A stretch of 16,330 nucleotides of DNA from an uncultured Clostridia bacterium. GTDB taxonomy: Bacteria > Bacillota > Clostridia > Christensenellales > Aristaeellaceae. The translations under genes and the position numbers were made by a program. The notes under the pieces are model-generated. The model had not been told where the DNA came from. It did no database searches and saw nothing but the letters and a program-made list of their open reading frames with translations. Within the stretch, counting starts at the first letter, position 1. Each line of letters opens with the position of its first letter. The stretch spans positions 1 to 16,330 of the forward strand of contig CALGBY010000119.1 of NCBI GenBank assembly GCA_937886445.1. Direction: 5' to 3'. This document shows, piece after piece, positions 5,397 through 10,905 of this stretch.

Positions 5397-5732
5397 TCAT
5401 CTCATCCTTCGGTCGGTCATCTGTTTTGTCTGGTCTCTTCCCGTATAGATCACCGCGCTGACCTTTACCGCCATTTCCTCATCATCCACGAGGAAATAGA
5501 TATAATAATTTCTGACTCTTGTCTTCCGTATGTCCGCGTCTTTCCATGGCTGTTCATCAACCGTTTTGATGCGCTTGGGCATTTTTGACAGAGACTTTAT
5601 CTCTTTCTCGAAAGCTTCCTGCAGATTCAGGGCTGCCTGCGGTGCAGTCAGTTCTCTTGCAATATACAGAACTATGCTTCTGATGTCCTGCTGTGCTTCC
5701 GGGAGAATGATCACACGGTAAATATCACACAT
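5397..5732 (-). CDS. Type II toxin, ParE/RelE family
   Basis: ATG 5732 overlaps the antitoxin stop by 8 nt (ATGTGTGA), so the ORF-track TTG at 5741 is less likely. YRVIILPEAQQDIRSI...NYYIYFLVDDEEMAVKVSAVIYTGRD fits the ParE/RelE (PF05016-type) pattern. Confidence 0.85.
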   Translation of the reverse strand: MCDIYRVIILPEAQQDIRSIVLYIARELTAPQAALNLQEAFEKEIKSLSKMPKRIKTVDEQPWKDADIRKTRVRNYYIYFLVDDEEMAVKVSAVIYTGRDQTKQMTDRRMR

Positions 5733-6042
5733 GCGGATCAAGTATCTCCTGCCTCAGGGATGAAAAGAACTCGTCCGCAGGCATACCTTCTCCCGCCTTT
5801 GCCTCAGCAAGACCGCGGGCCATTTTTGCGTCAAACTCTTCCTTCGTCATTTCGTCCAGAGCAAGAGGTTTACCTGCCGGGAGCGAAGGCCTGAACGGAA
5901 GCCCCTTCCAATGGATGATTTGCCTGTAGAACATATTGATCCCGTTAGATGCGGAAATCCCAAGATCGGCAAGAATTGCTTCTGCCTGCTCTTTGATCGC
6001 GGGTTCAACCCTTGCGGTTACGTTCGAACTTCTGATTGCCAT
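5725..6042 (-). CDS. Type II antitoxin, RelB/DinJ family
   Basis: From ATG 6042 the protein starts MAIRSSNVTARVEPAIKEQAEAILADLGISASNGINMFYRQIIHWKGLPF, a RelB/DinJ signature. GAAAGG lies upstream. The ORF-track start 6108 lies upstream of the predicted promoter, so it is rejected. Confidence 0.85.
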   Translation of the reverse strand: MAIRSSNVTARVEPAIKEQAEAILADLGISASNGINMFYRQIIHWKGLPFRPSLPAGKPLALDEMTKEEFDAKMARGLAEAKAGEGMPADEFFSSLRQEILDPHV

Positions 6043-6068
6043 ACAAAGCACCGCCTTTCTATGCTGCA

Positions 6069-6103
6069 ATCTTATCACTTTGTATGTCAGAGTGCAATAC
6101 AAA
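6069..6103 (-). promoter_or_regulatory. Toxin-antitoxin promoter with overlapping inverted-repeat operator
   Basis: On the minus strand: TTGCAC (6097-6092), 17-nt spacer, TAAGAT (6074-6069). Inverted repeat tttgtat (6079-6085) N11 atacaaa (6097-6103) overlaps the -35 box and spacer, as expected for antitoxin autoregulation. Confidence 0.65.
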
Positions 6104-6150
6104 ATCATGATTTTTGATACCGTGTCCCTGAAGGCCGGTTTTTCTGCTCC

Positions 6151-6279: not shown

Positions 6280-7803
<1,524 letters not shown>

Positions 7804-8004: not shown

Positions 8005-8355
8005 CTATTTCAGTTTTACAGCGGGCTTCAGGGGCTTCGCGTCCGGGTACTCATCCGCGGCTTCAAGAAGCAGGAGCTGCAGGTCATCGGATACATCGTC
8101 CGAAGGGTCTGTGTAATCCAGCTTTTTCAGAAGCAAGCATTGCGCCTGCTCCGGGGCGGCGCTGTAGGCTTTCTGCAGGTCACGGTTTGGAAAACTGCCC
8201 ATGTTCAGCTGGAACAGGATGCTGTTGCGGTCCGCTGCCGCGTCCTGTGCGGGGGCAAGCCAGATGTCCTCTCCGCACCGGACCGCGATCACGCCCTTCT
8301 CCGGACGGCGGTTTTTATACTGCTCGCGCAGTTCCTTTCTGCGATCGTTATCCAT
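8005..8355 (-). CDS. Small (116 aa) protein resembling the short GIY-YIG-like family of Firmicutes, with degenerate catalytic motifs
   Basis: ATG 8355 lies 1 nt after the upstream gene's TGA (TGAcATG), with AGAGGG upstream. The pattern RKELREQYKNRRPEKGVIAVR..DIWLA..D...DRNSILFQLNMGSFPNRDLQKAY matches my recollection of small GIY-YIG-annotated proteins (KEL..YK....GVY.I....YIG...DL..R.N.H...L..G.H.N..LQ), but GIY is replaced by GVI and YIG by WLA. The C-terminus is acidic. Confidence 0.5.
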   Translation of the reverse strand: MDNDRRKELREQYKNRRPEKGVIAVRCGEDIWLAPAQDAAADRNSILFQLNMGSFPNRDLQKAYSAAPEQAQCLLLKKLDYTDPSDDVSDDLQLLLLEAADEYPDAKPLKPAVKLK

Positions 8356-8356
8356 G

Positions 8357-8956
8357 TCAGTACTGCCCTCTTTTGATCTTCATACTGTACAGCCCGTGGC
8401 GGTTGCAGTACCAGTATACGCGCTCAAGGCCGCGCAAGGGGAAGCGCGCTTCGGCGGCCTCCTCGGGGTACAGCTTCACCAGAGAAAAGCCGCGGGGCGT
8501 GTAGGCGGCAAGGAAGGAAATGTGGTGATCTCTCGTCATTTCGTGGGAAAAGGAGAGGTAAAGCTCGTCCTCCGCGCGGCTGACGGCGGGGGTATGCTCG
8601 CTGTCGGGGCTTTCCGCGGTGAGCGGGGGCAGGGTGATGCCGTGGCAGGTCACACAGGCGCTGCCCATGCCGAACAGGATATTGCCGCATACCGGGCATA
8701 CATAGAGCACGCTTTTCAGGATATTGGCGGCCGGGTTGCGGTTGACGCGGTCTTCTCCGCACAGCAGCTCTGTGACGGATATGTTGAGCGCCTCCGAAAG
8801 AGACGGAAGCAGGGTGATATCGGGATATCCCTTTCCGTTTTCCCAACGGGACACCGCCTGCTCGCTTACATGCAGCTTCTCTGCCAGATCCGCCTGCGTA
8901 AGGTGATCCCGCTCCCGTAATGCGCGGATCAGCGCGCCTGTAACATAGCTGTTCAT
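8357..8956 (-). CDS. XRE-family HTH regulator fused to a desulfoferrodoxin-like (Cys4 zinc/iron ribbon + SOR centre II-like) module
   Basis: GGAGG lies 7 nt before ATG 8956; the ORF-track start 9016 has no RBS. HTH: LTQADLAEKLHVSEQAVSRWENG. Cys4: C87-P-V-C90 ... C101-V-T-C104. The SOR-like ligand set is H121 (SEHTP), H138 (SHEM), H144 (RDHHI), C184 and H187 (YCNRHGLY). This is colinear with Dfx EKHVP / HPMEEKH / YCNLHG. Confidence 0.8.
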   Translation of the reverse strand: MNSYVTGALIRALRERDHLTQADLAEKLHVSEQAVSRWENGKGYPDITLLPSLSEALNISVTELLCGEDRVNRNPAANILKSVLYVCPVCGNILFGMGSACVTCHGITLPPLTAESPDSEHTPAVSRAEDELYLSFSHEMTRDHHISFLAAYTPRGFSLVKLYPEEAAEARFPLRGLERVYWYCNRHGLYSMKIKRGQY

Positions 8957-8983
8957 CGTTTCGCCTCCTCTGAGAACACCTTC

Positions 8984-9012
8984 AGTGTAGCAGAGAAAGG
9001 GAAAAAACACAA
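8984..9012 (-). promoter_or_regulatory. Possible promoter of the XRE operon
   Basis: On the minus strand: TTGTGT (9012-9007), 17-nt spacer, TGc-TACACT (-10 at 8989-8984). The match is only moderate. Confidence 0.35.
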
Positions 9013-9080
9013 TCAACGCCTGCTTGATATGCTTTTTGTTGCCGCAAAAGCACGGAAAAACGGCAAAAACGGGCCGCGTA

Positions 9081-9109
9081 TTGACAAAAACGCGTTCAAA
9101 AGATAGAAT
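9081..9109 (+). promoter_or_regulatory. Sigma-A promoter of the vanW-tetR-FRG-peptide unit
   Basis: TTGACA (9081-9086), 17-nt spacer, TAGAAT (9104-9109). It is preceded by phased A-tracts starting at 9046, 9056 and 9065. Confidence 0.7.
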
Positions 9110-9186: not shown

Positions 9187-10905
9187 ATGTCACTGTACCC
9201 GCAGTATGATCAGAGGCCGCCGGATAACGCGCCGGTGCCGGATGACTGGGGAGAGCCCGTCCCGGGGGCGGGCGCGCGGCCCCGCGCGGATGAGCCGGAG
9301 AACGCGTATATGCCGCCGTTTGCCGATGATATAGGCGAATGGGGCTCGTATCCGGAGCAGCCGCTGCACAGGCGTTCGGACCGGCACAGGCGCAAAAAAG
9401 AGGAGCGGCCGGTGTACCGGGCGTCGTTTTCAGACGCGCGGGAGCATAGGGAAACGGACGGTGTGAAAAAACGCTCCGGCGAAAGAAGACTCTGGGCGCC
9501 GGTGTGCGTGGTGCTGAGCGCGGTGAGCATTGCCGTGATCGCCCTGATACTGAACGGGTATCTGGACGCGCTGGCGTGCGAAAGGGCGGCGGAGACCCGC
9601 TATGCCGTGCTTTACAGCGGCCGCCTGCCGGAAAATGTGTTTATTGACGATGTGTATGTGGGCGGTCTCACGCCCGATGAGGCGGCGGCGCGCCTTTCCG
9701 GGCAGACCGAAACGGGACGCACCGGGCTGGACCTGCGCGTATGCTCGGACAGCGGCGCGGTGTACCGCGTTACGGAGGAGCAGATCCCCTTCAGCCGTAA
9801 TACCGGCGTTGTGATCACGCAGGCTGCCGCCTTTTCCTGGCAGGGCATGCGCGGCACGGAGGATGCTTCGATCTCTCCCGCGGAATACCGCCTGAGAAAT
9901 CTGGACGCGCTGAAGAACGATCCCGTGGGCGCGCGGTATTACACAAGGGTGACCTGGTCCAACGAGGATGTGCTGCGCACGGTCAGCCAGATCGCGGGCG
10001 CGGAGGACCGCCCTGTGAAGGACAGTGAGGCGGTGTTTGATATCGCTTCGCGCACCTTTTCCTACAGCGAGGAGCAGGAGGGCATAAAGCTGAACGCCAC
10101 GGGGCTGTATGAGAGCCTGGTATCGCTGCTGGACGGCGGGGTGTTCCGGGGAGAGGTACGGGCCGAAACGGAGATCACGCAGCCGCGGGTGTATCTCGCG
10201 CAATTGATGAACAGCTTCGGGCTGATCTCGACCTACACCACGCAGACCACCGATGACCGCGACCGCAACACCAATGTGCGCCTCGCCTGTGAGGCGGTGA
10301 ACGGTACGGCGGTGCTGCCCTTCCAGCTGTTTTCCTTCAACGCGGCCACCGGGCAGCGCACGGAGCAGAAGGGCTACCGGCCCGCCGCGGCCATCGCCGG
10401 GGGAACGACGGTGGATGAGATAGGCGGCGGGGTGTGCCAGGTGAGCAGCACGCTGTTCAACGCGGCCGCCATGGCGGGGCTTGAAATACGGGAACGCTCT
10501 CCCCACACCTGGCCCTCCGGCTATGTGGATAAGGGACGGGACGCCACGGTGAACTGGCCCAACCTGGACTTTACCTTTGTAAACGACCGGGATACGCCCG
10601 TTTACATCATCGCGGAATACCATAACAGAACCTGCACCGTCAGCCTGTACGGCAAACTGCTTCCGCCGGGCGAAAGCATCCTGCTGGAAACAGAGGTGAT
10701 CCGGGAGGAGGCGCCGCCGGAGGAACCGGTGTATGTATATAATGAAGAGTTGCCCGCCGGCACCGAGCGGCAGAAAAAGAAGGCGCGCACGGGCTACACC
10801 GTGAACACCTGGCGCGTCTATACGGGCGGCGGGGCTGAGATCAACAGAGAGCTGCTGTGCGTATCGGATTACAAAATGATTCAGGAGACCATAGAATATC
10901 ACTGA
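9187..10905 (+). CDS. VanW-family membrane-anchored protein with C-terminal G5-like segment
   Basis: GGAG (9175-9178) lies 8 nt before ATG 9187. The protein has a Pro/Arg-rich N-tail and one TM helix (LWAPVCVVLSAVSIAVIALILNGYL). The VanW core shows GGGVCQVSSTLFNAA, PHTWPSGYV and GRDATVNWPNLDFTFVND. The C-terminal segment reads ARTGYTVNTWRVY. Confidence 0.85.
   Translation: MSLYPQYDQRPPDNAPVPDDWGEPVPGAGARPRADEPENAYMPPFADDIGEWGSYPEQPLHRRSDRHRRKKEERPVYRASFSDAREHRETDGVKKRSGERRLWAPVCVVLSAVSIAVIALILNGYLDALACERAAETRYAVLYSGRLPENVFIDDVYVGGLTPDEAAARLSGQTETGRTGLDLRVCSDSGAVYRVTEEQIPFSRNTGVVITQAAAFSWQGMRGTEDASISPAEYRLRNLDALKNDPVGARYYTRVTWSNEDVLRTVSQIAGAEDRPVKDSEAVFDIASRTFSYSEEQEGIKLNATGLYESLVSLLDGGVFRGEVRAETEITQPRVYLAQLMNSFGLISTYTTQTTDDRDRNTNVRLACEAVNGTAVLPFQLFSFNAATGQRTEQKGYRPAAAIAGGTTVDEIGGGVCQVSSTLFNAAAMAGLEIRERSPHTWPSGYVDKGRDATVNWPNLDFTFVNDRDTPVYIIAEYHNRTCTVSLYGKLLPPGESILLETEVIREEAPPEEPVYVYNEELPAGTERQKKKARTGYTVNTWRVYTGGGAEINRELLCVSDYKMIQETIEYH

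Follow-up and report, generated by a model that had tools for sequence, protein, structure and literature searches.

The 16,330-nucleotide window analyzed here, from contig CALGBY010000119.1 of an uncultured Clostridia bacterium of the Aristaeellaceae, encodes a protein of 199 amino acids in which an N-terminal helix-turn-helix (HTH) domain of the XRE family is fused to a module homologous to 2Fe superoxide reductase (SOR), the module being composed of a desulforedoxin (Dx)-like knuckle and a β-sandwich like that of SOR center II. It seems on balance somewhat probable that this HTH-Dx-SOR protein is a transcription factor regulating its own gene, in which the metal-loaded module derived from SOR both mediates dimerization and senses a signal that may be oxidant, O2 or iron status. 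The gene and its domains are laid out as follows.

8357..8956, minus strand: gene of the HTH-Dx-SOR protein, 199 amino acids, from the list of open reading frames (ORFs), with the stop codon at 8357-8359 and the start codon ATG at 8956.
8759..8938, minus strand: XRE/Cro-C1 HTH domain, residues 7-66, from the HTH_3 match and Foldseek.
8639..8710, minus strand: Dx-like knuckle, residues 83-106, with C87, C90, C104, H105 and the clade-private C101, aligned to C9/C12/C28/C29 of 1dfx.
8378..8638, minus strand: SOR center II-like β-sandwich, residues 107-193, with H121, H138, H144, C184 and H187, from sequence, profile and fold matches.
8964..8970, minus strand: ribosome-binding site GAGGAGG, read directly from the sequence.

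The 199-residue form starting at ATG 8956 was preferred over the longer forms of 217-219 residues proposed by gene callers because GAGGAGG lies 7 nucleotides 5' of this ATG and because the relatives share the start MNxYVTG, with which all the HTH-Dx-SOR homologs begin. An alternative upstream TTG at 9016 is used as the start in some public gene calls of near-identical copies (P0001 and L211, 217 residues). The plus-strand ORFs that overlap the gene, such as that at 8201-8920, are by-products of its 60% G+C content.

The N-terminal domain is the standard XRE HTH that a sequence-only reading of the window had recognized: HTH_3 (PF01381) matched residues 10-64 with a score of 58.7 bits, above the cut-off of 23 (E=5.7e-16), and Foldseek superposed the domain on the P22 c2 and 434 repressors with template modeling (TM) scores of 0.85-0.91. 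As for the C-terminal part, single-sequence searches retrieved the SOR of Treponema pallidum (1y07, E=9e-6) and the desulfoferrodoxin of Desulfoarculus baarsii (1vzg, E=4.5e-4), and a profile of 26 family members matched D. baarsii desulfoferrodoxin across residues 81-192 (E=6.6e-15) in an alignment that includes all the ligand columns. In the profile alignment, H121, H138, H144, C184 and H187 correspond to H49, H69, H75, C116 and H119 of D. baarsii desulfoferrodoxin, and the CxxC of the desulforedoxin site is matched by C87 and C90. The query sequence alone scored under the curated cut-offs of both PF01880 (19.6 versus 22.2 bits) and TIGR00320 (27.1 versus 146.9 bits). An AlphaFold model, with a mean predicted local distance difference test score (pLDDT) of 81, is composed of a five-helix HTH (helices 7-16, 21-28, 32-39, 47-56 and 61-66), a short linker helix and a β-sandwich, and agrees with the solved SORs at TM scores of 0.68-0.76 and root-mean-square deviations (rmsd) of 2.5-3.5 Å. 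Its best structural match is T. pallidum SOR 1y07 (TM 0.76, rmsd 2.5 Å), and the desulfoferrodoxins give TM scores of about 0.7. The fusion of an XRE HTH with an SOR-derived module, and the homology of its center II His and Cys positions to the SOR ligands, are thus borne out by both profile and fold, and the residues named in the sequence-only reading (C87, C90, C101, C104, H121, H138, H144, C184, H187 and S119-E120-H121) all stand where it had placed them.

Conservation of the metal sites was evaluated in a family alignment of 206 sequences, comprising 120 database proteins, 85 genomic loci and the query. C87, C90, C104, H138, H144 and C184 are invariant and H121 is found in 205, and judging from these seven (near-)invariant positions the metal ligands are under strong selection. 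The ligand set once read as a CxxC...CxxC ribbon was correct with respect to C87, C90 and C104. C101, however, occurs only in the query's own clade (4/206), and the alignment places the homologous fourth ligand of the first site at residue 105, which corresponds to the second Cys of the adjacent pair of 1dfx ("CC", aligned with residues 104 and 105 of the query) and is His in 121 sequences, including the query, and Cys in 84 (His or Cys in 205/206). Nor can H187 be taken as a constant ligand of the family, given that this position is occupied by Asp in 107 sequences and by His in 95. Positions 105 and 187 are paired as His/Asp in 104 relatives, as Cys/His in 82 and as His/His in 13, among which is the query. 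Coupling between the two metal sites was considered as an explanation of this covariation and was rejected: in a neighbor-joining tree the His/Asp pairing corresponds roughly to one large clade and the C105H replacement is recurrent, and the covariation, being mostly phylogenetic, is unusable as evidence for site coupling.

The canonical SOR spacings are CxxC-x15-CC, H-x19-27-H and H-x40-63-C, and the first His is preceded by the motif (E)(K)H (PMC11980386). In the query the first site reads C87-xx-C90-x13-C104-H105, which departs from the center I motif CxxC-x15-CC of 2Fe-SORs, and the intervals of center II, H-x16-H and H-x39-C, are tighter than canonical and just outside the ranges. The SOR-like spacing claimed earlier holds as far as the order of the ligands is concerned, which is colinear with desulfoferrodoxin in the profile alignment, with all five center II positions present and the four-His-one-Cys set complete. 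Modules of this regulator type also occur as stand-alone proteins of ~115 amino acids that lack an HTH (P0170, P0171, P0196, P0208, P0215 and P0242). In two of these relatives, P0148 and P0164, the axial Cys is replaced by Ser, which probably makes iron binding at center II impossible, and loss of the axial Cys is seen among stand-alone and fused relatives.

As the sequence-only reading had noticed, the catalytic Lys of the (E)(K)H motif is missing from the query, in which S119-E120 stands in place of E-K. This absence proved to be a property of the whole family: the column equivalent to Lys48 (position 120) holds Lys in only 18 of the 206 sequences and is otherwise variable. Over the 10 residues ahead of the first His, the net charge averages -4 in the family and is -3 in the query, as compared with -1, -1 and 0 in three solved SORs, and E115 and D118 are nearly invariant. 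Whereas the enzymes use a positive patch to steer superoxide, the charge of these residues indicates that the patch is replaced by an acidic loop in the HTH-Dx-SOR family. The variable Lys column, together with the acidic loop, argues against selection for catalysis, and because the loop would repel an anion, superoxide is doubtful as the preferred ligand. The lack of Lys throughout the family fits a site retained for a purpose other than fast turnover, in line with the earlier idea that the iron site has been kept for sensing. Superoxide, which that idea had offered as a signal, agrees poorly with a loop of charge -4. The metal site probably senses a signal rather than detoxifying superoxide, and the acidic residues could serve as additional ligands of the metal or belong to a conformational switch.

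It can nevertheless be supposed that the protein is a working superoxide reductase with a DNA-binding domain added to it, in which detoxification is the main role and the HTH tethers the enzyme to DNA or adds feedback. SORGOdb (Lucchetti-Miganeh et al. 2011, BMC Microbiol, PMC3116461) does list HTH-Dx-SOR as a class of SOR, the query holds all five center II ligand positions plus a Dx-like site, about 40% of the relatives possess the fully canonical ligand set (CC plus His), and Glu is common two residues before the first His, in the column equivalent to Glu47 (137/206). Such an enzyme would, however, have dispensed in nearly all of its members with the Lys of (E)(K)H (PMC11980386; 18/206), would work behind a strongly acidic active-site loop, and would have exchanged the fifth His for Asp in half of the family and the fourth Cys of the electron-relay site for His in 59%. 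In addition, no linkage with rubredoxin or another electron donor is conserved among the 70 loci whose neighborhoods were compared, and the scores remain under the curated SOR cut-offs. We consider the enzymatic role improbable, more so than any other explanation discussed here.

The acidic loop beside the site would favor cations, and ligand sets such as His3-His/Asp-Cys and Cys3-Cys/His, which tolerate exchanges, are typical of regulatory or structural metal sites. These features might suit a sensor of metal availability like Fur, DtxR or NikR, with Fe(II) or another divalent metal as its co-repressor or co-activator and no redox reaction involved. This explanation is unlikely in our view, considering that no recurrent metal transporter or storage genes adjoin the gene in the 70 loci, that the class is without a known regulon, and that the SOR site of the enzymes binds iron very tightly rather than reversibly.

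The evidence for autoregulation comes from the promoters of the relatives. The dyad CTAC-N5-GTAG was found in 62 of 78 upstream regions, where the number expected, judging by random segments of these loci, is 1.4, and in most sites it is located 64-68 nucleotides ahead of the ATG. The motif logo derived from the upstream regions of L008-L087 reads cTCTACtNtNCGTAGGTaG, followed by TAnnaT ~20 nucleotides on, with the dyad center at about -43; the palindrome itself is cTCTACnnnnCGTAGGT, and the last bases of the dyad overlap the -35 hexamer. In the loci fetched, the motif is essentially limited to one copy per locus, at the promoter of the family gene. When a 14-base version of the motif was searched for in metagenome contigs, 59 of the 120 exact matches were situated ahead of a family gene, which was intact in 41 cases, cut by the contig end in 10 and internally deleted in 8. 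Ten further matches precede a gene that encodes the same HTH without the SOR part, and the five of these that were readable consist of three copies of a paralog with two transmembrane helices and two truncated family genes. The rest of the matches are mostly in coding DNA of unrelated, often high-G+C organisms, have no -10 element and look like chance occurrences. Because the HTH is the element common to both types of gene found behind the motif, the simplest reading is that the HTH binds the motif as a candidate operator and that the gene would be autoregulated. A dyad center at -43 is compatible with activation as well as with occlusion of the -35 element; λ cI bound at OR2 activates PRM from about -43. 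An RNA hairpin was rejected as an explanation of the dyad, which sits upstream of the -10 element, and a search of the window with the Rfam families gave no match.

Several observations concern the genes found behind the motif. The paralog, of ~196 amino acids (L115, L158 and L197), has the same recognition helix, TDKAVSKWETGKGFPD, with two predicted transmembrane helices replacing the SOR module, and is preceded by the same operator, CTCTACTTTTCGTAGGTTG. Genes that appeared to encode only the SOR part were examined as separate targets and proved to be internally deleted copies of family genes; such deletions behind an intact operator are seen in L133, L139, L149, L181, L190 and L194, and truncations in L152 and L200, which may be recurrent pseudogenes or assembly variants. 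Another apparent target outside the family, in L094, L120, L131, L153 and L187, was rejected, since the promoter is retained there and the family gene behind it has been replaced at the strain level: compared with L060 (Roseburia porci), the promoter and operator are 97% identical until ~17 nucleotides before the start of the family gene, from where the HTH-Dx-SOR gene and ~3.8 kb are replaced. The new segment starts with an ORF of 166 amino acids that shows a weak match to the LCM methyltransferase family. Extra sites were rare in the ~880 kb of fetched loci, with one in L076 and one in L002, upstream of a gene for a Macro-domain protein. That in L002 (6632-6646) is a second perfect palindrome, CCTACggggtGTAGG, located between the stop codon of the family gene and the downstream Macro-domain gene, and may be an additional operator. 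In L174 and L206 the motif is accompanied by a -10-like TAGAAG and, ~380 nucleotides downstream, by an ORF judged by eye to be MATE efflux-like, which could be a further target.

The window itself lacks the canonical motif; the best position-weight-matrix score is 10.2, in a coding region, as compared with a site median of 29.8. Aligning the promoters on the -10 element TGcTACACT nevertheless located a palindrome at the corresponding place.

8984..9012, minus strand: predicted promoter with -35 TTGTGT (9007-9012), a 17-nucleotide spacer and extended -10 TGcTACACT (8984-8992), a consensus-level prediction.
9012..9028, minus strand: candidate operator, palindrome ATCAAgcaggcgTTGAT, centered at about -43, the center it shares with the family dyad.

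This 17-bp palindrome matches 8 of the 12 strongly conserved positions of the family consensus, for which the binomial p is about 0.003 at a fixed offset and before allowing for the choice of the -10 element, and of its mismatches those at -48 and -38 are placed symmetrically as a pair. The recognition helix of the query starts with S31-E32-Q33, and the combination of E32 and Q33 is found only in its clade (4/206), whereas K33 is present in 202 of the 206 relatives. In L088, which encodes a protein 86% identical and having the same helix, the promoter stretch is conserved and the DNA further upstream has diverged; the window palindrome is kept in its right half and partly in its left half. These sequences fit a joint change of recognition helix and operator in the query clade. 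K33 and the canonical motif occur together in L212, which also possesses the partner gene described next.

8005..8355, minus strand: orphan protein of 116 amino acids with a GIY-YIG fold, translationally coupled to the regulator gene after a gap of 1 nucleotide, from an AlphaFold model and a fold search.

The 116-residue partner gave no sequence match in Pfam, NCBIfam or the PDB and belongs to a family of six clusters in 5.8 billion sequences. Its AlphaFold model (pLDDT 86) resembles the catalytic domain of I-TevI (TM 0.75, E=2e-4), although the position matched by eye to the catalytic Arg of I-TevI is not conserved in the family (R/H/Y). The pair of this gene and the HTH-Dx-SOR gene also occurs, likewise translationally coupled, in L088, L211 and L212, in the last of these in a different genomic context, and the 116-residue protein is the likeliest co-regulated product in the query clade. 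The pairing may also be looked at from another side. Given that 2Fe-SORs are dimers (PMC11980386) and that XRE regulators need a dimerization domain, the SOR module might be only a metal-stabilized dimerization scaffold, and the regulator might be constitutive or controlled by other means, for example by the 116-residue protein that always accompanies it in the query clade; the loss of the axial Cys in P0148 and P0164 is in line with this. It is hard to see, however, why a scaffold should keep six ligands invariant and H121 in 205 of 206 sequences, including those of the solvent-exposed center II, which goes beyond what a scaffold usually needs, and according to the SORGOdb description the class III SOR of T. 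pallidum lost its Dx ligands and yet kept its fold (PMC3116461). A role as a mere scaffold is thus quite unlikely.

The autoregulated sensor remains the explanation that we prefer, and its mechanism can be pictured as follows. The XRE domain, presumably as a dimer, would bind the palindromic operator abutting the -35 element of its own promoter, which in the query clade would also drive the co-transcribed gene of the GIY-YIG-fold protein. The C-terminal module, descended from a 2Fe superoxide reductase, would retain both metal sites, of which one is a knuckle of the type Cys3-His/Cys and the other, His3-(His/Asp)-Cys, most probably binds iron, but not the features to which SOR owes its speed as an enzyme. 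An event at the exposed iron site, which might be oxidation, ligand binding or metal loss and is possibly coupled to the acidic loop ahead of the first His, would then alter DNA binding. In a more specific version, which is possible but should be taken as tentative, the SOR-derived iron site would be a dedicated sensor of O2, superoxide, peroxide or nitric oxide, and an oxidation-linked switch of a carboxylate ligand would shift the acidic loop, turning DNA binding on or off. A number of points weigh against the preferred explanation. Exchanges such as that between His and Asp at position 187, or between Cys and His at position 105, are typical of structural or zinc sites too, and loss of the Lys reportedly slows SOR chemistry without abolishing it, as seen in K48 mutants of the D. 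baarsii enzyme. The window palindrome has arms of only 5 nucleotides, which makes it suggestive at best, and the co-variation of helix and operator represents one evolutionary event. It is conceivable that the candidate operator is bound by a different conserved regulator, and neither the ~880 kb of loci nor the metagenome motif scan identified a regulon beyond the family's own promoter.

The architecture has been on record since 2011. SORGOdb established the class "HTH-Dx-SOR" with 19 proteins filed as superoxide reductases and without a functional statement (PMC3116461), and the query fits its definition, that is, HTH, then Dx, then SOR in one polypeptide. The sequence-only reading knew of no characterized transcription factor with an SOR fold as its input domain. 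Full-text literature searches found no characterized HTH-Dx-SOR member either, and that part of the statement stands; the architecture as such is not novel, and the query is a divergent new member of an uncharacterized class. OseR, the O2-responsive regulator of Clostridioides difficile, was considered as a characterized relative and was discarded as an unrelated protein of the Spx/YusI family. The family now amounts to more than 7,800 homologous protein clusters at 90% identity, and the C-terminal module alone to 299 representatives at 50% identity (E<1e-10). It is distributed in at least 537 species-level genomes, mainly of Lachnospiraceae, Butyrivibrio, Oscillospiraceae, Christensenellales and rumen Treponema, and its proteins are named in the source databases only as "XRE family" or "helix-turn-helix domain-containing."

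Comparison with known systems makes clear which parts of the window protein are shared and which are its own. The SORGOdb proteins have an identical three-part architecture (PMC3116461), from which the window protein diverges by His at the fourth Dx position, the extra C101 and the changed recognition helix. The desulfoferrodoxins or 2Fe-SORs (D. baarsii 2ji1/1vzg and D. desulfuricans 1dfx) are homologous to it over residues 81-192, with the same fold and colinear ligands, but it lacks their catalytic Lys, has an acidic loop where theirs is neutral or basic, spaces its ligands more closely, carries CxxC-x13-C-H instead of CxxC-x15-CC, and adds a DNA-binding domain of 80 residues. T. pallidum class III SOR (1y07), the best structural match, also has an N-terminal Dx-like domain that deviates from the Cys4 pattern, while it keeps E-K-H, is an active enzyme and has no HTH. 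XRE-cupin regulators and HppE (1zz6) appeared among the full-length Foldseek hits with low TM scores (about 0.3) and high rmsd. They follow the same logic, in which an XRE-type HTH at the N terminus leads into a β domain that is rich in His and binds Fe(II), but the C terminus is a cupin in these proteins and an SOR immunoglobulin-like sandwich in the window protein, and there is no homology between the sensor parts. The repressors P22 c2, 434 cI and λ cI are very close in HTH fold (TM 0.85-0.91 for P22 c2 and 434), and the candidate palindromic operator, centered at about -43 of the protein's own promoter, recalls λ cI at OR2/PRM; their C-terminal domains are unrelated.

In strict anaerobes, very few direct sensors of O2 or reactive oxygen species are known. 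If oxidant or iron status is indeed sensed through a recycled SOR active site, this would be a new sensory mechanism, and if the signal is an oxidant, the class would constitute a widespread, previously unrecognized regulator of oxidative stress, made out of an enzyme fold, in the strict anaerobes that inhabit gut and rumen. The class is present in hundreds of species of Lachnospiraceae, Butyrivibrio, Oscillospiraceae and rumen Treponema. The conserved operator makes the class directly testable and gives a handle for regulon mapping in complete genomes. The findings also warn against annotating HTH-Dx-SOR proteins as superoxide reductases.

The neighborhood of the gene is not conserved. In the 70 loci the largest cluster of neighbors within four genes was found in only five, as is expected for a regulator with dispersed targets, and rubrerythrin and DJ-1/PfpI neighbors occurred in only 3-4. 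No link with oxidative stress was seen among the neighbors in the window, which include a GH51 arabinofuranosidase, a RelB/ParE pair, VanW, TetR and a hybrid histidine kinase. The genes of the RelB antitoxin and ParE toxin (5397-6108, minus strand) adjoin that of the GH51 arabinofuranosidase (6280-7788). A near-consensus promoter, TTGACA-17-TAGAAT (9081-9109, plus strand), faces the divergent VanW/G5-domain gene (9187-10905) and lies ~55 nucleotides from the candidate operator of the regulator.

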